Sequence record: PQ863256.1
Length of the DNA: 64,000 nt
Strand: one strand, 5' to 3'
DNA from: Escherichia phage Ptacy1479
Shown: positions 8,705 to 44,995 of the stretch, one piece after another
Numbering within the stretch: the first letter of the stretch is position 1
How the letters are laid out: each line of letters starts with the position of its first letter
Program-made: the position numbers and the translations under genes
The notes under the pieces: generated by a model
The model's database searches: none
What the model saw: the letters and a program-made list of their open reading frames with translations, nothing else
What the model was told of the DNA's origin: nothing

Positions 8705-8726
8705 AAGACCTATACAAGCTAGTGTG

Positions 8727-22430: not shown

Positions 22431-24086
22431 ATGCAACAGACAACTTACGCTCAGGTCAGAAGTCGTGACCCGAGAAATACTTTCTATGGTGTTAATCCGG
22501 GAGCGGCTTCGGCCTCTCCTTATATGGCTAGACCAACTCAGACAGCAGATATTTCTATGTACCAACGTCCTGCTGTACCTTCATCTCTTGCGGGTCTTGT
22601 CTCTCAGGCAGAAGAAGATCAGAATGCTATGATTAATCCTGGATTCCAGCAACGTCTTATGGAACAGCAGAATCAAGGAACCCCTACCAGTCTTCAGGGT
22701 ATTGACATTGGAGCACCAGCCCCTGTAGTGGCTAATCCTAACCTATCCACTGATCAAGGTTTACAAGATGCAGGGCTTATGCCTAGTGACCCTCTTCCGG
22801 TAACACCTCCCCCTAAACCACTAGAAGCTGGTCCTATGGAGTTTACTCCCTCTCAGGTGGAACAGGCACAAGGTGTGATTAACACTCTTGCTCAAGGACA
22901 AGACACTGGTGATGGGATGGCTGCTGCTACTCGTGCTAAAGATCAAGAACGTGTTAACAATGATATCTTACAGGTTGCGAAAGCTAAAGACCCCTCAGAA
23001 GCTTGGAACAAACTACAGAAAGAACCATTCTACCAAAACTCTAGTTTCTATACAGGTTTGATGGGTGTAGGTCTTTCAATCATGTCAGGTAAGTCTCCTA
23101 TCGAAGCTTTCCAGATTGGTCAGGGAATGGCTAATCAGGATGAGACTAAGAAACAACTAGAAGCTAACCGTGATGCTCTGATAGAACAAGGTTTCTCTCA
23201 AGACTCAATTGCAGCTGCTATTGCTAATGGAGACCCGTCCCTGCTGAAGATGAAGGCTGTAGACCCTGCTCAGAAAGAAGCGTTGTATGCTGCTCGTGAA
23301 GAACGACAGAATGCTGAATGGGATAGACGTCAGCAGATTCAAGAACAGACTATGCGTGAGCGTGCTGATGAAACTCGTCGTGCCGCTGAAGAAAGAGCCA
23401 ACATGAACTTCGAACGTCAGAAAGAACTTATTGGTTATCGTGATCAAGTTAAGGCTGAACGTGCTGAACAAGCTGCTCAGAGTTTTAACTTTAACCCGAA
23501 AGAAGTTCGTCTTGCTCAGAACACAGCTGAAGGTACAGTTGCTAAGCAGTGGGCAGAGAAAGGTGGTCTGTTTAACCAGTCCAACAAAGACTTGGATTTG
23601 GCTGACAAGGCTGTTAAGGATAAAGATTACCAGACAGCTCGTTCTGCTTACATGCAGGCTATCATGAACTCCGCAAGGGCTGAAATCGGTGCTACTCGTT
23701 CTCTTACCGAAGAAGACTTGGGGCACTTTGCAGAAGACCCATCAATCTTTGTTCGTGTTGGCAACAAGTTTGCACTGAAATCTGGGTGGCGTCCTACTGA
23801 TTCAGCTCTTGCTTATGCTCGCAAGCAAGCTAACGTTGGTCACACCTCTGCAATGAAAGGCGTTGCTGATGCTAAGAGAGCTACTATCGAAGCGTACATT
23901 GGTTCAGGTATGGATAAGAAGAGAGCTACTGCATTGGTTAACCGTGCAATTCCTTCTGGCGGTTTCTATGACCCTCTCGGTGTTTTCTCTGATGAAGCAG
24001 AAGAGTATGTTGGTGGTGCAGCAACCAACCCTAAACTGAACGGTGCTTTATCGGCTGTTGAAGACACTAGCTGGTTCACGCAATAA
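22431..24086 (+). CDS. hypothetical internal virion protein
   Basis: 551 aa within structural block. Confidence 0.5.
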   Translation: MQQTTYAQVRSRDPRNTFYGVNPGAASASPYMARPTQTADISMYQRPAVPSSLAGLVSQAEEDQNAMINPGFQQRLMEQQNQGTPTSLQGIDIGAPAPVVANPNLSTDQGLQDAGLMPSDPLPVTPPPKPLEAGPMEFTPSQVEQAQGVINTLAQGQDTGDGMAAATRAKDQERVNNDILQVAKAKDPSEAWNKLQKEPFYQNSSFYTGLMGVGLSIMSGKSPIEAFQIGQGMANQDETKKQLEANRDALIEQGFSQDSIAAAIANGDPSLLKMKAVDPAQKEALYAAREERQNAEWDRRQQIQEQTMRERADETRRAAEERANMNFERQKELIGYRDQVKAERAEQAAQSFNFNPKEVRLAQNTAEGTVAKQWAEKGGLFNQSNKDLDLADKAVKDKDYQTARSAYMQAIMNSARAEIGATRSLTEEDLGHFAEDPSIFVRVGNKFALKSGWRPTDSALAYARKQANVGHTSAMKGVADAKRATIEAYIGSGMDKKRATALVNRAIPSGGFYDPLGVFSDEAEEYVGGAATNPKLNGALSAVEDTSWFTQ

Positions 24087-24106
24087 GACCTAAGTCCTGC
24101 CTTCTA

Positions 24107-24115
24107 TAATGTATA
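24107..24115 (+). promoter_or_regulatory. TAATGTATA promoter-like element, 38 nt upstream of ATG 24154
   Basis: exact 9-mer; the track ORF start at 24109 is the ATG inside this motif. Confidence 0.5.
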
Positions 24116-24153
24116 TAGGGGGTAGGACATTTTTATTTATAAAAGGAGACGTT

Positions 24154-27100
24154 ATGGCTAACATTAAACCGTGGGAAGAAGCTTCCAAAGCTCCTGCGTA
24201 TCTGAATGCCTCTCCGGAGCAACAAGCTCAAATGAGAGAACAATATAAGGCAGCAGGTGGCTCTATTCCTGAGGAACAACCAGTAGCACAACCACAACAA
24301 GAAGAACGTGGTGCTATAGGTGAGTTTGCTCAAGGTGTGTCAAATGCTCTTCAATCTGGTGGTGCAAATATTGCAGCTAGTGCTGCTAAAGGTATTGGTG
24401 GTTTAGTTGAGATTGGTGAGAATCTAGCTGGAACACAAACTAGTTATGGTAAGCGTATCCAAGAGAACTCTCAGAACCTTCTGAAAGAGCGTATGGATAA
24501 GATTGAGGATGGGGTTGGTAAAACTGTTGGTCAGTATGCTGGCGTTGCTGGTGATATTGGTATGACTGTTGCTAACCCATTGGCTGCTGCTGCTATCATC
24601 GCAGGTCGTGAGACAGGCCGTGCATACGCAGACCAAACCCCTGAAGAGGGAGAAGATAAGTCTATTCTAGATGCGGCCTTAGTGGGTGGTGCTAACTATG
24701 CGGCTCAGAGAATCCTTCCGGGTGCTGTTGGTACGGCTGAGTCCACACTTGGACGTATTGGTCAGAACGTTGCTAGTAACGCAGTGGCTGGTGCTAAAGG
24801 TGGCGCTCTTGTCGGTGCTGCTGAAGTTCAGAACAAGTATGGCGATGATAATGATCTAGCTAAGACATTGGAAGGTGTTATCGAAGAAGGTGCTATGGGT
24901 GCTGCATTCGGTGGTGCAGTTGGTGGGGTTCATGGTTTGATTAGCCGTCCGGATTCTGCTGTCTTCAAGAATACTCCAGAGTATGCGAAGACTGATATTG
25001 CTGCTGATGATGAACTAATTCGCAGTGCTAAGAATATTGATGAATTGAAAGAAGCCTATTCTAAAGCTGAAACTGCTAACGCTGCTTCTGCTCTGAATCT
25101 TCTGGATGAGAATGGATTCCGTATTACAGATGCTGTTGCTGTAGATTCTCCTGCTGCTCAGCGTATTCTTAATACTGACCAAGCTCGTGCTGAGAAGGCT
25201 GCTTCCGTTCAGAAAGAACATTCCAACATTCCGGGCCTTAATCCTTTAGCTTCTCCTGCTAAGACTCGTGGTAAAGCCTTCGCTGATAACGAGCACAACC
25301 AGAAGCAGGCTGTTGCTATGAAGGATGCAATGGCTGATTACACCAAAGACAACACTAAAGCTCTTACGGATGTTCTAGATAACCTAGACCGTGAATTAAC
25401 ATCTCTCCGAGCTTCTGGTGATTTTACTGGTAGTCCGATTGATATTAAGAATCGTACACAAGCCGACCGTGACTTCATTGATGCTTACAAGACTTTCTAC
25501 AACGAAGCAAACAGATTCAAAGCTCGTGAAGGTGAAGACTTTAACAACTTTGTAGAGAAAGCTGCTGAACTACAGAAGATGGCTGATAATGTCTCTCCAG
25601 AGATGAAGAAAGCTATCAGTGGGTTGAAGAAACTGAAAGGTATGCCTGAAGGTTTTAATCCTATCCAAGATGCTTACACTCTGAACAATACAGCTAAGTT
25701 CATGAGCAACCAAGATCGTGGTTGGACTTCCCTGACTGATGATGGATTCCGTGAGGCTTCTTCACCTAGTCTGGTAATGAATACTCTTGGTGCTGCTAAG
25801 TATGCTCTGAATCGCTTCTCTTCTCAGCGTGCTCGCTCTCAACGTGTTAAGCAACAAGAGTCTAACAGTGAAGCTATCCGCTCTCTTGCTCGTGGTGATT
25901 TGGAAGTTGCTCGTGCTAAATCTACTGCCGAGGAAGCTCGTGCTAGGATGGAAGAAGAACCAGTTGTTGATGACATTAAATTTAAGACGCAAAATGACGT
26001 AGAAACCGAACCGGTTCGGGAGCCTTCTTCTAGTACTGTGACGGAAGAAAATCTTCCTTCTTCTGCTCCTCAAGAAACTCCTCTTACAGCTCGTGATTTA
26101 GTTGCTCAAAGACGTGCTATCCGTCAGGCTGAACAGCGTCGCGCTGAAGAAGAGGCAGCTGCTGCTCAAGAAGCTCCGGTCGAACAAGCTCCACAGGCTG
26201 AACCTCTCCCTGCTCGTAACCCTCTAGAGGAGCGTCGTGCAATGGAACAGCAACGTGCTCAAGAAGAGGCCGCACAGGCTCCAGAACCAGCCGTAGAGGA
26301 ACCAACAGTCAAAGCTGAGCCATTACCTGCTCGTGCTCCTAAAGCTCCTAAGGAAGCTGTACAGGACGTTAAACCGGCAAGTGGTGTAGAACGTTTAGCT
26401 GCTATGTCTAGTGCTGCTCGTCAGGCTACCAAAGATCGTGCAGAACGTTTTGCCCGTTCTCTGTACTCTAAGGCTGCTAAGGCTAAAGCTACTGCTGAAA
26501 ACTTCTTGGCTTATAAGGGTGATCCTAAGGAATTGATGCGTCGTATTCGTCAGGAAGACAATGCTATCAATACTGAACGTCATGAAGAAATGGCTCGTAA
26601 CCAGCTGGCTTCTCAGCAAGGTATTGCTACTGCTAAGAACAACACTGTACGAACTAATTTTGCTGAATGGGTTAAAGAACGTGGTCTGCCAGAAGACATT
26701 GCTACTAAGGCATTACGTGCTGAAGAGAAAGGTTTAGGTGGGAACGTAACTAACTTGGATAGTCTGAAACGCCGTGCTGAAAGGTTGTATCAGAAGCAGC
26801 GTGAGGATGAATTTGATAGACTGTACCAACAGGCTCTAGAAGAGAACAAAGCTTTCGATAACAAGAATGCTCCTAAACTGATTGACCAGAAGAAAGAGCT
26901 TCAGTCCGAGATTGACGCTTTGATTGATTCAGAACCTTTACGTCCTGCTCAGAAAGATGCTATGCGTAAGCTGATGAATGATTTTGTAGATGGGAAGTTT
27001 AAATCTTCAGAGAAGGCTGGTAGGGAAGAGGCTTTGGAAGTTGGTCAGATGAAGGATATTTGGGATGGGTTTATTAATACCTACAACAGAGAAGTGAATG

Positions 27101-28575
27101 CCTTCAACAAAGCTAACAAGAACTCTCAGTACGAAGCTGCTGCTAAGCACTTACAGGCTCGTGAAGAACGTCTTGCTACCCTCAGGAAAAAGGCTCAGGC
27201 TCGTTCAGATGCTAAGGCTGCTGTTGAGAATGAACGTAAAACTCTAGAGGCTATTGCAGCTCAGAAGAGTGAGATTGAGAAGATGATGGAAGGTTTACCT
27301 AAACCTGTTCGTGAGGCTCAGGAATCTCGTACATTGAAACAGTTGGCTGCTCACCACGATAAGAATTCTCCAGTTCCTCCAGAGAAATTCCGTAGTTATA
27401 TTGAACGTATCCACAACGCCGAGTCAGATTACCTTGATCGTCAGCGTCGTTTAACTGATGCAGAGGAAGATGCTCGTCAGGCTAAGTGGAATAAGATGTA
27501 TGAGCAAGCGGAAGAGATGAACCGTAAGTTTGATGTGGACAAGAGAGTTAAGCGCAGTGAAGAGCTTAAAGCGGCCCAAGAGCGTGAGAATGACCTTATG
27601 GCAGTACAACGTCAACGTGATGACATTCATCGCCGCCTGATGCGTACTATGGAAGATAAGGGCATATCTAGAGAGGATGCTGAAGCATTTGCTGGTTCCT
27701 ATATGGACAACCGTTATGCACTTCTTGAGAAGCCTATGACTCCTACTGAACATCAGAATGCTCGCTCTCGTATCGAAGCTGATGTTGAGAAGTTTGCTAA
27801 GAAGTACGAATCAATGACTCCTATCGAGAAAGAGATTGTTAAGGTTACTGGAGATACTGAAGGTAAGCTTGATAACTTGGATGCGGATACTAGGAAGGCT
27901 ATTGAGGAGGCTCAGAAGGTTGACTCTGATATTAAGAAACTGCAAGAGGAAGAGATGGAGATGGAGAAGATTCGTTCTGCTCTGCCTGACGATGAAAGAT
28001 CTCAAGCAAATTCTGATATCTTGGAAAGCATTAAACAACAGGAAGAGGTCTTTGCTGATAAAGTAGAGAAAGCTTTCTTGAGTGGGAAAAGCTTGGATGA
28101 ATTGGTTAGTGTGGCTGAAGTTTTAGACAGGGTTCATGGTGCAGATAAGGCTGGTAACAACCGTCGCTTTGTACGTGCATTGCAGACTGCTGCTGAAAAC
28201 AAGAAGAAGTATGGTGATAATCCGGTAGCTTGGTTTAGTGCTGATGATTACTCTGCCATTGCTAAACTTGGTGCTTCTTCCGCAGGTGGTAACAAATCCA
28301 GAGCACTGGAGAAGATCTTTGGTTCTACAGCTGAACAGGCTAAGAGTAAGTTGCTTGGTAGGGATGATGTAGCGAAGATGAGACGTGTGATTGAAGAGAA
28401 CCCTGATATTAAGATTCCTTCTTACAAGACAACGAATCGTACTGAGTACTTGCAGTTCTTGGAGAAGTTTAATGACGAAGGGAAGCCGAAGATTAAACGT
28501 GGCTCATTGTCAGAGAAGCTTGAACGCAGTAAGCGTCAATCGAGACTCCGTGTAAGAGTTCGACCTAAGGAGTGA
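24154..28575 (+). CDS. large internal virion / ejection-type protein (1473 aa; start revised from 24109)
   Basis: AAGGAG upstream of ATG 24154; long coiled-coil and Ala/Glu/Arg/Gln-rich low-complexity regions. Confidence 0.6.
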   Translation: MANIKPWEEASKAPAYLNASPEQQAQMREQYKAAGGSIPEEQPVAQPQQEERGAIGEFAQGVSNALQSGGANIAASAAKGIGGLVEIGENLAGTQTSYGKRIQENSQNLLKERMDKIEDGVGKTVGQYAGVAGDIGMTVANPLAAAAIIAGRETGRAYADQTPEEGEDKSILDAALVGGANYAAQRILPGAVGTAESTLGRIGQNVASNAVAGAKGGALVGAAEVQNKYGDDNDLAKTLEGVIEEGAMGAAFGGAVGGVHGLISRPDSAVFKNTPEYAKTDIAADDELIRSAKNIDELKEAYSKAETANAASALNLLDENGFRITDAVAVDSPAAQRILNTDQARAEKAASVQKEHSNIPGLNPLASPAKTRGKAFADNEHNQKQAVAMKDAMADYTKDNTKALTDVLDNLDRELTSLRASGDFTGSPIDIKNRTQADRDFIDAYKTFYNEANRFKAREGEDFNNFVEKAAELQKMADNVSPEMKKAISGLKKLKGMPEGFNPIQDAYTLNNTAKFMSNQDRGWTSLTDDGFREASSPSLVMNTLGAAKYALNRFSSQRARSQRVKQQESNSEAIRSLARGDLEVARAKSTAEEARARMEEEPVVDDIKFKTQNDVETEPVREPSSSTVTEENLPSSAPQETPLTARDLVAQRRAIRQAEQRRAEEEAAAAQEAPVEQAPQAEPLPARNPLEERRAMEQQRAQEEAAQAPEPAVEEPTVKAEPLPARAPKAPKEAVQDVKPASGVERLAAMSSAARQATKDRAERFARSLYSKAAKAKATAENFLAYKGDPKELMRRIRQEDNAINTERHEEMARNQLASQQGIATAKNNTVRTNFAEWVKERGLPEDIATKALRAEEKGLGGNVTNLDSLKRRAERLYQKQREDEFDRLYQQALEENKAFDNKNAPKLIDQKKELQSEIDALIDSEPLRPAQKDAMRKLMNDFVDGKFKSSEKAGREEALEVGQMKDIWDGFINTYNREVNAFNKANKNSQYEAAAKHLQAREERLATLRKKAQARSDAKAAVENERKTLEAIAAQKSEIEKMMEGLPKPVREAQESRTLKQLAAHHDKNSPVPPEKFRSYIERIHNAESDYLDRQRRLTDAEEDARQAKWNKMYEQAEEMNRKFDVDKRVKRSEELKAAQERENDLMAVQRQRDDIHRRLMRTMEDKGISREDAEAFAGSYMDNRYALLEKPMTPTEHQNARSRIEADVEKFAKKYESMTPIEKEIVKVTGDTEGKLDNLDADTRKAIEEAQKVDSDIKKLQEEEMEMEKIRSALPDDERSQANSDILESIKQQEEVFADKVEKAFLSGKSLDELVSVAEVLDRVHGADKAGNNRRFVRALQTAAENKKKYGDNPVAWFSADDYSAIAKLGASSAGGNKSRALEKIFGSTAEQAKSKLLGRDDVAKMRRVIEENPDIKIPSYKTTNRTEYLQFLEKFNDEGKPKIKRGSLSEKLERSKRQSRLRVRVRPKE

Positions 28576-32381: not shown

Positions 32382-32626
32382 AATGCATCTCTTTATAAAC
32401 AGTTTCCGTGTTCTTCTTCCAGTTAGATAAACCGGTAAGAACTCTCTGAGCAACTTCATCAGCTGCCCTACTTCTTTCAATCTCTAACTCTTGTTGATGC
32501 TTTTCTTTATCCAGATTGTTACTGTCTGTTCTGTACTCATTAAACTTCATGCCACCAAAGAATACAAGAGCTGAAAAGATAACAAATCCTAGATTATCAC
32601 TTAAAGTGCTTTGCATATTGTCTCCA

Positions 32627-32652
32627 ACGAAAAAAGCCACCCGGAGGTGGCT
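32627..32652 (-). terminator. rho-independent terminator after SSB-like gene
   Basis: AGCCACC-TCCG-GGTGGCT followed by TTTTTTCGTT on - strand. Confidence 0.7.
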
Positions 32653-32673
32653 AAGCTATAACAAGGAGAGTTA

Positions 32674-33420
32674 TTAGAATGGGCTATCGTTGTCGTCTTC
32701 ATAAGTAGAAGCAGGCTCTTTATCAATCGTAGGGATTGAAGGGGTAGCTTCTTTCTGCTCTGTTTCAGAAGCACGAGTAATTTCACGACCAGCCAGAGGC
32801 ATGTTCTTAGCGTCATTAGCTTGAGTAAGCAGGTTGCGCTGGAACGGGAACATCAGTTGATAGGATGCTACGTTCTCATCGGTTTCAGCATACGGTTCGA
32901 AGAATACCAGAGGACTACGAGCTTCACCAACTGCTGCACGATATTTGGTTGGGATTGGAGAAATGGTCTTGATGGAGTTTTTAACTTCACCAGCTTTGTT
33001 AGTATAAGAGTTAACCAGAATGTTAACAGGCTGACCTAACAGAACATCCTTGAACCAAGACAGATCACCTTTCAGTGCTTGAATGCTTGGGTCAATCATC
33101 TTGCAAAGATCAAGAATACCAGAGTTCTTAGCTCGTGGGTTTACATCATAGCTCTTGAACTGGCAAGCCGGACGTGGTTCTAATGCCTTACCATCGGAAT
33201 CTTTACCAGTAGCATCAACACCAATCAGCTCGAAAGCCAAATCCATACGGAAAGCCGGATTCTTAGGGGTTACTGCTTTGGTCTTCGGGTCAATCCAAGG
33301 GTCACGATTGTGAACACCCAAACCTACTACACGAACGATACGTGCTTCGTATTCACCATCAGGGATTACATCGTAGTTGGATTTACGGGAAGCAGTTGCG
33401 ATAGTTGGAATCATAGACAT
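32674..33420 (-). CDS. single-stranded DNA-binding protein (putative)
   Basis: 248 aa; acidic C-terminal tail ending ...EDDNDSPF, typical of SSBs; own promoter and terminator. Confidence 0.5.
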   Translation of the reverse strand: MSMIPTIATASRKSNYDVIPDGEYEARIVRVVGLGVHNRDPWIDPKTKAVTPKNPAFRMDLAFELIGVDATGKDSDGKALEPRPACQFKSYDVNPRAKNSGILDLCKMIDPSIQALKGDLSWFKDVLLGQPVNILVNSYTNKAGEVKNSIKTISPIPTKYRAAVGEARSPLVFFEPYAETDENVASYQLMFPFQRNLLTQANDAKNMPLAGREITRASETEQKEATPSIPTIDKEPASTYEDDNDSPF

Positions 33421-33479
33421 ATTGTAATTTCCTTATTTAGTTTGAAAGATTGTTGCTCTCTTTGAGCGGTTATGTATAG

Positions 33480-33488
33480 TATACATTA
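33480..33488 (-). promoter_or_regulatory. TAATGTATA promoter-like element about 60 nt upstream of SSB-like gene
   Basis: exact 9-mer on - strand. Confidence 0.45.
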
Positions 33489-33551
33489 CGCTTATACCGA
33501 TAAGAGTACTATATAATATAAGTATCTTTGGTAGTAGATATAACACACTAG

Positions 33552-33560
33552 TAATGTATA
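33552..33560 (+). promoter_or_regulatory. TAATGTATA element on + strand, divergent from the 33480 element, facing a non-coding AT-rich region
   Basis: exact 9-mer; no + strand ORF downstream. Confidence 0.4.
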
Positions 33561-33836
33561 TATTGTATAGCTGATAAAGTTATTGCAGGCTTGTATATTG
33601 GGCAATTCACAGAATCCCTTGCAAGTACCGAAGGGCAGGAGCCACCTGCGAGATAAAAATAGAGAATTAAGGAATCCTTGATTTAGGTTGTAGGGACTCC
33701 TAGGGACTTTGATTCTCTAATTAAAAGAATAATAATTACTTATTACCCAAATAATTAACTAACTTACTTAAACCAAATTCAAGAATAATAGATAAAAAGA
33801 TTATTCCTAATAAAGCCAAGAAGTAAACAATATAAG
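33561..33836. other. AT-rich non-coding region with tandem TAGGGACT repeat and hairpins; candidate origin or regulatory region
   Basis: no ORF of 60 aa or more on either strand; flanked by divergent promoter-like motifs. Confidence 0.3.
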
Positions 33837-34001
33837 TTACCATTCAAGTAAACCTTTAAAATTAGATTTTTCTACTATCCTCTGATAACGAAGATTAGAA
33901 TCAGCTTGTTTCTTTAACATCTCATTATATTGATCTCTGATAGAGTCTTTATGAATTACAGGTTCTTTAAATAATGAGATCTTGTTCTTTTCTTCTTTCA
34001 T
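33837..34001 (-). CDS. small hypothetical protein (start revised to Met29)
   Basis: AGGAAGG 8 nt upstream of ATG 34001. Confidence 0.45.
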   Translation of the reverse strand: MKEEKNKISLFKEPVIHKDSIRDQYNEMLKKQADSNLRYQRIVEKSNFKGLLEW

Positions 34002-34470
34002 CGAAAACCTTCCTAATCTCTTGCAGAGAAACAGCTTTATAATTAATTTGCTCCATTGATGTACAGAAATATCTCCAATCATCAATTACATGATTATGTG
34101 TATGAGCATAAATATTAAACTTCCCTCTCATCTCATCAGAGTGAATAGGAATGTGAGTTATCCAAAACTCTTTATATTTATAATCACCAGAGATTCTACG
34201 GAAGACTTTCATCATATCAGGGAGAAGTTCTAATCTGTCATGATTTCCTAAGACCAGATGTTTCTCTCCTTTTACTTCAGCGATGATATCAAGGGCATAC
34301 TTTTCAAACACCCAATCACCAGTAAAGAAAATTTTATCACGCTTAGTTACATGATCAAATGCAGCTAGAATTGCTTTGTCATGTTCTTCGATGGTTTTAA
34401 ATTGCTTACGAAAACTACAGATGTTGCGATGGCCTAAGTGACCGTCTCCTGCAAAATAAACTTCAGCCAT
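33967..34470 (-). CDS. calcineurin-like metallophosphoesterase
   Basis: GDGHLGH, GDWV, GNHD, HTHNH motifs in order. Confidence 0.8.
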   Translation of the reverse strand: MAEVYFAGDGHLGHRNICSFRKQFKTIEEHDKAILAAFDHVTKRDKIFFTGDWVFEKYALDIIAEVKGEKHLVLGNHDRLELLPDMMKVFRRISGDYKYKEFWITHIPIHSDEMRGKFNIYAHTHNHVIDDWRYFCTSMEQINYKAVSLQEIRKVFDERRKEQDLII

Positions 34471-34479
34471 AAAGACCTC

Positions 34480-34695
34480 TTAGATAGTACACCCATCGCA
34501 AGTTAAATCACCTAGAAGGGATAGAGAAAGTAATCTGGATTGCTCATCACTGTATAATTGATCAATCTCTTCTTTAAGTTTTGCCAACTCTGTGAAATTG
34601 ATAAGTTGACCATGTTCAAGACAGTCTGTTTTTAGTATAAATAAAACTTCAGCGTCTGTTGAATCTTCACTTGAATATTTATCAATGTATTCCAT
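34480..34695 (-). CDS. hypothetical acidic protein
   Basis: TAGGAG upstream of ATG; 71 aa. Confidence 0.5.
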   Translation of the reverse strand: MEYIDKYSSEDSTDAEVLFILKTDCLEHGQLINFTELAKLKEEIDQLYSDEQSRLLSLSLLGDLTCDGCTI

Positions 34696-36317: not shown

Positions 36318-38162
36318 TTAGTGCGTATGCATCCAGTTGAGTCCAATCTGACAATCAGAGGCCAGAGGACATTCCATGTTCAAGTACTCACCCGCTTTCT
36401 TAACACAAAGCTCAGTGTGTTCTTTGAGTTTCTGTACATCATTACGATTCACTGAGAATTGGCCCTCATCATGCATATCAATTACCTTAGCACAACGAAC
36501 CCCATCCCTCTCAATCCACTTGTTTAGGAACATCATAGCATATTTCATAACAACAGCACCAGCACATTGCAGTAGAGTGTTAAGTGCTTTATGAACCATA
36601 ACCTTACCAGTGGCATCTCGTCTCATTGTAATCTTACGACCATCAACACCAATCAAGTATCCTTGAGCAGCTTTCTCTGTCATACGATCAATGAGGATTG
36701 CAATACATGGGTTCTCTGCCAAGAAACGTGCTCGCATCACTGAACCTTCTTCAGCCCCACCACCTACAATTGAACCAAGCTTAGCGTCGCCAGCACCGTA
36801 GTTGAATGCATAGATAAATGTTTTAGCGTTGTCACGAGTAGGAAGACCAGCAAGTTTCTGGTTATGGGAGTGGATATCACCTTCAAGGAGAATATCACGA
36901 TACATAATAGCAGAAGCTAAACCACGTTCTGCCAGAGCTTTCTTAGCCGGATTGTTCTCTTCAATTGCCTCAGCAAGCATATCTCTACACTCTTTAATGA
37001 GGTAGTGAGCGAGCATACGAAGTTCAAGTCCAGAACCATCATACCCTAAGAATACTTCTTTACCAGCGGGTATGTAATATTTGTAAGCACCTACAGGTTT
37101 GTCTTTCTTCCTCGGCTTACCTTTCTCATAAATTACGTTAGTACCTTTTCGTATATAACAACCATCAGGAACAACGTTAGTAATAACGAAAGGACGAGAA
37201 TGATCACTGTCTGAGTTATAGTCAGACTCAAACAAACTGCGACACTCGTGACCAAACAAACCACGGGAGGGAATATTAACCACGATACGATGTTTGAATC
37301 GAAAAGTTGGCGTAGCGCAGCTGTTAGCTTCTGCCGAAAGTTTACCATCTTCGCGTTCCTTTGCTATGAGTCCACTGATAAGACCTAGCCTGTGAGCCGC
37401 TACAACGCGTCTCTTAAGCAAACTTCCGACACTCCCTAGATCACCCCCTAGCCCCTCTTCAAGAGTCTCCTCGAGGTTTGTAGGAGCTGTAGGCCACTTA
37501 TTTGATGTGGCTAGTGCTTTCTTAATCTCATCAAACGTTACAGGATTACGGCGATTAGGGTTCAATCCCAAACCAAATACGTAAGCCTTCATATAGTTCT
37601 TAGTTTTAAACCTGAAATGCTTTTCTAAGAACTTCTTAATATCAGCGTCAACCATCTCGGCTGTCTGCTTTTGCTTAGCATTGCCTCTCATCCAAGCAGT
37701 ATACCATGCTTGGTATGTTCCATACTTTCGCATATCTTTCTTAATTTCGAAAGTATTCCAAGGTTTCTTAGATACGTTAAACTCTGGAGGAAGAAAGCCC
37801 TCATCCATAAGAGCCTCTTTAACTCGTGCATCTTTCGATGGGTCAAAGTCTACGTATTCGACACAGGTGAATGCTCCACCAATATCTTCTCTCTTCAGCC
37901 CAACCCTATCACAATAGGCTTGAGGCCACTTCTGTAAAGCTCCAGACTTCTTAAACGGCTTCATGTAAGTAGAGCCATCTAATCTCATCTTAGGTAAGAG
38001 AGGAATCAACTCTCTGTCAATATTAACAATAATCTCTTTAAGGAGGTGAACATACCACCGAGCATTTCTTCGGTTGAAACTCACTCCGTGCTTTGCTTGC
38101 TTAGAGATTATATCAGCGACAGTCATCTCTGTCAAAAATGGAAGAGCGTCCGGGTTGCTCAC
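36318..38162 (-). CDS. DNA polymerase, family A, polymerase domain only
   Basis: motif A DGSGLELRMLAHY, motif B RDNAKTFIYAFNYG, motif C VIDMHDEGQF; no exonuclease motifs in this ORF. Confidence 0.8.
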   Translation of the reverse strand: MSNPDALPFLTEMTVADIISKQAKHGVSFNRRNARWYVHLLKEIIVNIDRELIPLLPKMRLDGSTYMKPFKKSGALQKWPQAYCDRVGLKREDIGGAFTCVEYVDFDPSKDARVKEALMDEGFLPPEFNVSKKPWNTFEIKKDMRKYGTYQAWYTAWMRGNAKQKQTAEMVDADIKKFLEKHFRFKTKNYMKAYVFGLGLNPNRRNPVTFDEIKKALATSNKWPTAPTNLEETLEEGLGGDLGSVGSLLKRRVVAAHRLGLISGLIAKEREDGKLSAEANSCATPTFRFKHRIVVNIPSRGLFGHECRSLFESDYNSDSDHSRPFVITNVVPDGCYIRKGTNVIYEKGKPRKKDKPVGAYKYYIPAGKEVFLGYDGSGLELRMLAHYLIKECRDMLAEAIEENNPAKKALAERGLASAIMYRDILLEGDIHSHNQKLAGLPTRDNAKTFIYAFNYGAGDAKLGSIVGGGAEEGSVMRARFLAENPCIAILIDRMTEKAAQGYLIGVDGRKITMRRDATGKVMVHKALNTLLQCAGAVVMKYAMMFLNKWIERDGVRCAKVIDMHDEGQFSVNRNDVQKLKEHTELCVKKAGEYLNMECPLASDCQIGLNWMHTH

Positions 38163-44971: not shown

Positions 44972-44995
44972 GAGAGTTACCATATCTACTACCAA

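Follow-up and report, generated by a model that had tools for sequence, protein, structure and literature searches.

The spacer between the homologues of genes 40 and 41 of Escherichia phage Ptacy1479 (PQ863256.1) probably carries a functional plus-strand promoter for host RNA polymerase bound to the phage sigma factor gp36, from which a discrete functional RNA of approximately 159 nt would be made. We analyzed positions 33421–33836 of a 64,000-nt stretch of this genome (hereafter, the window). The window is a Kuravirus (phiEco32-like) genome: 98 phage records matched positions 32600–34600 in a megablast search, the closest being 97% identical, and all 98 come from phages of Escherichia or Shigella that belong to the phiEco32 group (Kuravirus, Nieuwekanaalvirus, and Suseptimavirus; subfamily Gordonclarkvirinae). 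The region corresponds to phiEco32 positions 36573–36988, namely the phi32_40/phi32_41 spacer and most of phi32_41, and the neighboring genes around the spacer all lie on the minus strand. An earlier note on this DNA reasoned from T7-type phages and proposed either a replication origin or a short plus-strand non-coding RNA. Its premise was mistaken: the phage is phiEco32-like rather than a T7-type phage that brings a single-subunit polymerase, and the motif on which the note relied, TAATGTATA, is no T7-type signal but a -10 element for E. coli core polymerase with gp36. The non-coding RNA that it offered as an option is the reading favored by our comparative evidence.

A proposed divergent pair of gp36-type promoters in the gene 40/41 spacer

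TAATGTATA occurs five times in the 64-kb window, compared with 0.62 occurrences expected, and a count of five was reached in none of 100 shuffles. This motif is the -10 consensus of promoters for host RNA polymerase carrying gp36, with AATGTA at -14 to -9 (PMC4281155, PMC4331800, PMC12276001). The published set of phiEco32 gp36 promoters consists of six sites, upstream of genes 6, 13, 26, 40, 58, and 68 (PMC4331800). Two copies stand back to back in the spacer, at 33480–33488 on the minus strand and at 33552–33560 on the plus strand, with 63 bp between them; the divergent promoter pair that the earlier note had read from these motifs is supported. Since the published set includes a site upstream of gene 40, the minus-strand copy is P40, the middle promoter from which polymerase with gp36 reads gene 40; its start is predicted at A33473. 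The motif upstream of phiEco32 gene 40 is among the experimentally detected promoters (PMC4331800), the S2 Table of SU10 gives an identical P40 sequence between CDS37 and CDS38, and the P40 motif is almost invariant in relatives.

The predicted plus-strand promoter consists of the -35 region GGTAGTAGATAT (33530–33541; -37 to -26), a 10-nt spacer, and a -10 element that matches the consensus exactly (33552–33560; -15 to -7), with a predicted start at A33567. Both the -35 sequence and the spacing are identical to those of P68. In the window, the site at 44993–44963 on the minus strand (-35 block, 44993–44982) was identified as P68 because its phiEco32 counterpart lies between genes 68 and 69. 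Among the seven motif sites compared in the window, the plus-strand site and P68 have in common TTGGTAGTAGATAT at -39 to -26 (33528–33541 on the plus strand and 44995–44982 on the minus strand, respectively), the 10-nt spacer, and (T/A)AATGTATAT in the -10 region; both also have A at the +1 position. P68, a middle promoter that depends on gp36 and gp79, is the promoter present in the open complex of gp36 solved by cryo-electron microscopy (cryo-EM), in which gp36 recognizes -37G through R187 and the T opposite -34A through Y186; transcription is crippled or abolished when -37G, -34A, or -14 to -11 of P68 is altered (PMC12276001). When the start is taken as A33567, the plus-strand site carries -37G, -34A, and AATG at -14 to -11, that is, every base needed on P68. 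The numbering was set by the contacts with -14A, -13A, -12T, and -11G and is the sole numbering that also places G at -37 and A at -34 in P68. P68 stands in front of a protein-coding gene of the main coding strand, whereas the plus-strand promoter points against every neighboring gene. No plus-strand gene lies downstream of it, so that it does not occupy the position upstream of a middle or late gene that is expected of a gp36 promoter, and it is missing from three published lists (PMC4281155, PMC4331800, and the S2 Table of SU10).

The plus-strand site was assigned to the P68 class because P13 and P26 carry a different upstream block, AAGACCTA. Two upstream classes of gp36 promoter can thus be told apart, the late promoters P13 and P26, which have AAGACCTA in common at -37 to -30 (8705–8712 and 24085–24092, plus strand), and P68 together with the new plus-strand promoter. 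P40 and P58 have neither upstream block, and A at -34 is found in all gp36 promoters of the window. The TAATGTATA motif of P26 (24107–24115, plus strand) includes the ATG listed as the start of a 1488-amino-acid open reading frame (ORF; 24109–28575); therefore, the real start codon must lie downstream of the predicted transcription start at ca. 24122. Sigma-70-like sites were found only at the level of chance.

Conservation of the predicted plus-strand promoter

For comparison, the region was assembled in 22 distinct versions, drawn from GenBank phages, IMG/VR, and metagenomes. The GGTAGTA core, the -10 element, and the 10-nt spacing were kept in all 22 distinct sequences, which represent three genera, while the spacer itself was 64% conserved. 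Conserved elements around a variable spacer are the signature of a promoter under selection. The ES17-type clade has the -35 variant GGTAGTATATCT with the spacing unchanged.

In ES17 and six IMG/VR or metagenome contigs, a minus-strand ORF of 47 amino acids, MKFNHKYAATEKARAYVTARQSRVYKRQSPTNNSKETFVWTKPTTFR, is inserted between P40 and the plus-strand promoter. In this arrangement, the plus-strand promoter stays with the block downstream of it and P40 stays with gene 40; therefore, the plus-strand promoter and its downstream block behave as one module. The inserted ORF (ES17_37) lies at 427–570 of the ES17-type locus L042 and at 1273–1416 of locus L030, where it is on the plus strand of the locus. 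Its start codon abuts the -35 block, and a promoter of its own is not obvious.

The predicted plus-strand RNA

The predicted non-coding RNA extends from A33567 to 33725 on the plus strand (ca. 159 nt). Its end was placed where conservation stops, and its length is thus a guess from conservation, because no canonical plus-strand terminator was found. The earlier note had described the whole 416 bp as non-coding. This holds for the 315-bp spacer (33421–33735) but not for the right-hand 101 bp (33736–33836), because positions 33736–33843 on the minus strand are gene 41, which is annotated in relatives and is a member of a PHROG family. As the note stated, no ORF of at least 60 amino acids is present in 33421–33836 on either strand. 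No AUG or GUG occurs within the ca. 159 nt from A33567; the small ORFs in the spacer (32–37 amino acids) were rejected as genes, as they are not conserved and phiEco32 has none of at least 25 amino acids. The ca. 280 bp of AT-rich DNA reported in the note proved to be two AT-rich flanks, the promoter part (27% GC) and 33723–33836 (20% GC), around a core at 33567–33722 whose GC content (40–44%) is that of the genome (mean, 42%).

The predicted RNA begins with the hairpin AUAGCU-GAUAA-AGUUAU (33567–33583), with the predicted +1 as the first base of the stem. In two of its six pairs, both partners change (C-G, A-U, and U-A in one; U-A and G-C in the other); at a further pair, 11 of 19 sequences have G-U and 8 have G-C. 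Its covariation score was reached by none of 500 column shuffles, with the caution from our control that related sequences can exceed all shuffles even when no structure is present. Pairing was lost in slid registers. The stem begins at +1 in all variants, including that of MN05 with the different sequence AGAGUU...AACUCU. Read from the minus strand, its G-U pairs would turn into A-C; the hairpin therefore belongs to a plus-strand RNA.

The central domain (33584–33634) is variable and is swapped in relatives. The window has the A-type, which includes the CCCTT/AAGGG hairpin (33616–33635). An unrelated and longer B-type is found in MN05, ECBP2, ES17, and six metagenome or IMG/VR contigs, and the two forms are distributed as a mosaic relative to the promoter and 3' variants. 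Accordingly, the predicted RNA is 156–159 nt long with the A-type and 183–187 nt with the B-type domain. The hairpin CCCTT (33616–33620)/AAGGG (33631–33635) pointed out in the earlier note is present in form A only, being missing from the B-type domain, and shares G33635 with a better conserved hairpin, GCAGG/CCTGC. The B-type domain (595–672 of locus L007 and 901–976 of locus L015) has a third GGGAC(U/C)GA copy and a hairpin of its own, (U)CUCUCA...UGAGAG(A), in which one variant changes U-A to U-G, again compatible with the plus strand only.

The last part of the predicted RNA is a 97-nt 3' domain (33626–33722) that is 97–99% identical between clades, compared with 62–72% identity at the third codon positions of gene 40; between the same divergent clades, the gp40 proteins are 83–86% identical. 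This block was covered in all 98 phage records matching the region, and gp40 with at least 80% identity is likewise found in 98 records. In relatives whose genes upstream of the spacer differ (LAMP, Paul, TH42, NC-B, and ECBP2), homology ends at ca. 33726–33742. The domain begins with the hairpin GCAGG-AGCCA-CCUGC (33635–33649), all five pairs of which are invariant in 19 sequences; its sole variable base (C/A) is in the loop. It ends with a long composite hairpin (33657–33722; inverted repeat I3) closed by a 16-bp helix (33657–33672 with 33707–33722), with a 34-nt interior that holds AAGGAAUCCUU and two copies of UAGGGACU (33691–33708). This hairpin folds with -20.4 to -23.5 kcal/mol on the plus strand (z-score, -2.0 to -3.1) and -15.6 to -18.2 kcal/mol on the minus strand (z-score, -1.7 to -2.95), and the helix includes two G-U pairs that turn into A-C when the minus strand is read. 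The base of the hairpin is AU-rich, its interior is large, and it is followed by five U on the minus strand and three U on the plus strand; the A-runs that flank it on the plus strand are U-runs on the minus strand. A standard scan found no intrinsic terminator site in 33200–34100 on either strand.

The earlier note had also stressed a tandem TAGGGACT. Both copies are present (33691–33698 and 33701–33708) and the pair is kept in all relatives, one clade reading AGGACT in both copies; however, an exact 8-mer pair 10 nt apart is by itself not beyond chance.

Distribution of the conserved block

A covariance model of the 3' domain gave a single match in the window (121.5 bits). The same model found no copy of the block next to the gene 40 homologues of phages outside the subfamily (7-11, GAP52, LAh_8, Privateer, PKM.Lu.22.1, and PJNS034), in which the spacer upstream of the gene is mostly ca. 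50–100 bp, is absent in GAP52, and is 201 bp in PJNS034. No copies of the block were found in 185,579 bacterial and archaeal genomes. Only five IMG/VR contigs matched, mostly representing the same isolates. A search of the 64 kb with Rfam at gathering thresholds gave no match, and a permissive Rfam search of the region and of a B-type relative gave chance-level hits only (snoR29, CRISPR-DR47, RsaA, and CopA; E-values of 1.4–6.7); the Rfam families, which include phage and enterobacterial small RNAs, thus have nothing in common with the predicted RNA. ARAGORN found no tRNA or tmRNA in the window. A role as a CsrA sponge was unsupported, with four GGA motifs observed and 2.9 expected (p = 0.31).

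Neighboring genes and the leader of gene 40

The gene 40 homologue (32674–33420, minus strand; 248 amino acids) is the first gene of the P40 transcription unit, and its product is 100% identical to phi32_40 of phiEco32. It matches phrog_6599, a family of unknown function, and no Pfam relative, PDB relative, or PHROG function was found for it. One GenBank record labels the product as a single-stranded DNA-binding protein (SSB). We treat the SSB-like label, which the earlier note also gave, as putative. The protein ends in YEDDNDSPF, and the acidic D-x-D-x-P-F is invariant across eight homologues (32674–32700, minus strand); D243, D245, P247, and F248 are invariant even in homologues of Aeromonas, Proteus, Salmonella, and Cronobacter phages with 41–48% identity. 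This tail is similar to the acidic tip at the C-terminus of bacterial SSB. Directly downstream of gene 40, WFI101126, SU10, Ptacy1532, YF01, and others carry a gene for an HNH homing endonuclease (1576–1989 of locus L001), which is absent from the window, where the site is just left of 32674, indicating a presence/absence polymorphism.

The 5' untranslated region of gene 40 is predicted to be 53 nt (33421–33473, minus strand), the start being placed from the position of the P40 motif and the numbering of PMC12276001. The leader contains a small conserved hairpin, GCUC-AAAGA-GAGC (33455–33467; -5.2 kcal/mol; z-score, -2.0), and 33450–33469 hardly varies among 16 distinct sequences (19 of 20 columns). 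P40 lies within a near-palindrome, GGTTATGTATA-G-TATACATTAC (33468–33489); therefore, a copy of the motif with one mismatch, TTATGTATA, faces the opposite way across the P40 start site. The left arm of this near-palindrome differs in the SU7/ECBP2 clade.

The gene 41 homologue (33736–33843, minus strand) encodes a hydrophobic peptide of 35 amino acids, MVTYIVYFLALLGIIFLSIILEFGLSKLVNYLGNK, which matches phrog_24970 (E = 1.9e-23), and is annotated as a coding sequence in phiEco32 (phi32_41), WFI101126, MN03, SU7, and EP335. Gene 41 closes the upstream minus-strand unit, and its GC content is 22%.

Discussion

We propose that the spacer is a back-to-back promoter pair for E. coli RNA polymerase carrying gp36, with predicted starts 94 bp apart. 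The leftward promoter, P40, would transcribe gene 40 onward. The rightward promoter is expected to work as P68 does once gp36, together with gp79, is present, giving a short RNA of ca. 160 nt in three parts, that is, a 5'-terminal hairpin, a replaceable central domain, and an almost invariant 97-nt 3' domain. The 5'-terminal stem and the large 3' hairpin would stabilize the RNA; a 5'-terminal hairpin typically shields RNA from decay that depends on the 5' end. The 3' domain may be the working part, binding a conserved partner such as a host or phage protein or an RNA. Since paired and unpaired bases alike are extremely conserved, the partner is presumably an unchanging one, be it a factor of the host or a protein or RNA conserved in the phage. 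Together with the A/U runs beside it, the long hairpin may mark the ends both of this RNA and of the convergent gene 41 transcripts, the latter because AUUUUUAUCU follows it on the minus strand.

Several observations weigh against a functional RNA from the plus-strand promoter. The literature covered on phiEco32 and Kuravirus antisense RNA, transcriptomes, and origins, a coverage that leaves out the two primary phiEco32 papers on promoters and the genome, reports no plus-strand transcript, plus-strand promoter, antisense RNA, or origin for this spacer. A terminator scan found no canonical plus-strand terminator after the RNA, the tail being AUUUAAAAG. The fold of the whole predicted RNA (-42.7 kcal/mol) reaches a z-score of only -1.6, compared with -0.3 for the minus strand. 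The helices of the 3' domain never vary, so that covariation speaks neither for nor against them; the 29 pairs outside the 5' hairpin are nearly constant, and in none of them do both partners change. In 5,426 E. coli genomes, no long stretch was found that matches the RNA or is complementary to it, and complementarity to possible targets within the window was at chance (13 runs of at least 10 nt, the longest 11 nt, within the range of shuffles). Finally, one metagenome contig (L033, ERZ1034915 NODE-75) has TAATATATA, corresponding to -11G>A, in a -10 element that is otherwise invariant. From the published mutagenesis, this change is predicted to cripple the promoter; a natural loss or an assembly error is possible.

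Would the plus-strand RNA rather prime replication? A middle promoter on the plus strand could supply an R-loop or a processed primer at the AT-rich DNA beyond it, and the orphan promoter, which has no downstream gene and is of the same class as a middle promoter, is located in the replication and nucleotide-metabolism arm beside a possible SSB gene. Beyond the conserved block, all clades have AT-rich DNA (20% GC here), although its sequence is not the same in all of them; however, in this clade, the tract is the coding gene 41, and the first 156 nt downstream of the start have 40% GC. The plus strand of the block is G-rich (GC skew, +0.14 to +0.2), and G-rich RNA favors RNA-DNA hybrids. Cumulative GC skew, a weak test for a phage, tracks the direction of the genes; its one turn is at the strand switch at ca. 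28.5 kb, with nothing at 33.5 kb. The spacer has no DnaA boxes or iteron arrays, and the literature covered places no origin here. A structured pre-primer such as RNA II could account for the conservation of the RNA, whereas origins of the T4 and T7 types need no conserved RNA structure, and a simple origin of promoter plus unwinding element predicts neither the covarying hairpin at +1 nor the constrained 97-nt block. We therefore regard an origin primed by this transcript as unlikely.

It also seems improbable to us that the block acts chiefly on the minus strand, with the long hairpin and AUUUUUAUCU forming a terminator or an RNase III-type site that ends the gene 41 operon and insulates the P40 unit. 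The plus-strand promoter would then only make antisense RNA or head-on transcription that sharpens the boundary, like lambda OOP at the 3' end of cII. The minus strand does fold here (-15.6 to -18.2 kcal/mol) and continues into an invariant run of five U, compared with three in the plus-strand tail, but the stem beside this run is rich in A and U, encloses 44 nt, and was not recognized by the standard terminator scan, and two of its pairs turn from G-U into A-C. A promoter of gene 40 directly downstream fits a unit boundary; however, the minus-strand ORF of the ES17 type, which stands downstream of the block with no obvious promoter of its own, argues against full termination. The plus-strand RNA would be fully complementary to any read-through transcript, yet neither termination nor antisense pairing needs conserved loops and linkers, and 97 nt are almost invariant. 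Still far less probable is an operator at the DNA level, in which a phage or host protein binds the block, especially the two TAGGGACT copies one helical turn apart, and controls both promoters. The block is indeed conserved as DNA sequence beyond its structure, and the repeat is kept as a pair, including the clade in which both copies read AGGACT. In that variant clade, however, the spacing changes from 10 to 9 bp, and the repeats lie 124–141 bp beyond the plus-strand start and over 200 bp away from P40. As a genome-wide operator, TAGGGACT was rejected, being neither enriched in the genome nor found in another regulatory position, and such an operator would leave the covarying hairpin at +1 and the orphan promoter unexplained.

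On this evidence, a functional plus-strand promoter that makes a discrete functional RNA remains the reading that we favor and hold to be probable. Small RNAs that phages encode and transcribe from dedicated promoters are a kind already known. Lambda OOP RNA is 77 nt long, has a canonical terminator, overlaps the end of the cII coding region, and acts by antisense pairing; it was once proposed as a replication primer. The predicted RNA resembles OOP and P22 sar in being a short RNA with its own promoter, directed against the main operon at the 3' end of a convergent gene, close to replication genes. It differs from OOP in that its conservation ends ca. 10 nt before the stop codon of gene 41 is reached, no canonical terminator was found, and it is constrained far beyond the needs of antisense pairing. 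As for replication, oriF and oriG of T4 combine a middle promoter with an unwinding element, the primary origin of T7 consists of promoters and an AT-rich region, and ColE1 RNA II is a structured pre-primer. The spacer shares with these a phage-specific (middle-type) promoter without a gene, then AT-rich DNA, and, with RNA II, a structured transcript, which here is predicted. Unlike in T4 and T7, the AT-rich part is, in this clade, a gene, and the origins of those phages need no conserved RNA fold. The origin idea, thus corrected, would be closer to T4 oriF/oriG or ColE1 RNA II than to T7.

phiEco32 serves as the reference case of host sigma factor replacement by a phage, and its transcription map, in the form cited by three later papers, has six gp36 promoters, all before genes. 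If our reading is correct, a seventh, wrong-facing promoter and the tightly constrained RNA made from it would bring a non-coding component into the phiEco32 program and would explain why a 315-bp spacer is kept in 98 matching records of otherwise tightly packed genomes. A bolder version, which we regard as possible if doubtful, is that this seventh orphan promoter drives an RNA specific to Gordonclarkvirinae whose 3' domain captures or mimics a host component (a translation, RNA-decay, or defense factor), or which is a structured pre-primer that founds an origin. This would represent a new class of functional RNA tied to a phage-encoded sigma switch, and if the RNA primes replication, it would locate the origin of a therapeutically used phage group (ES17 and SU10). 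A test case is at hand in purified gp36 and gp79, the in vitro system, the cryo-EM structures, and the BASEL isolates that infect K-12. Its tie to the sigma factor and its near-invariance make the predicted RNA a worthwhile and easily testable lead in the biology of this phage group.

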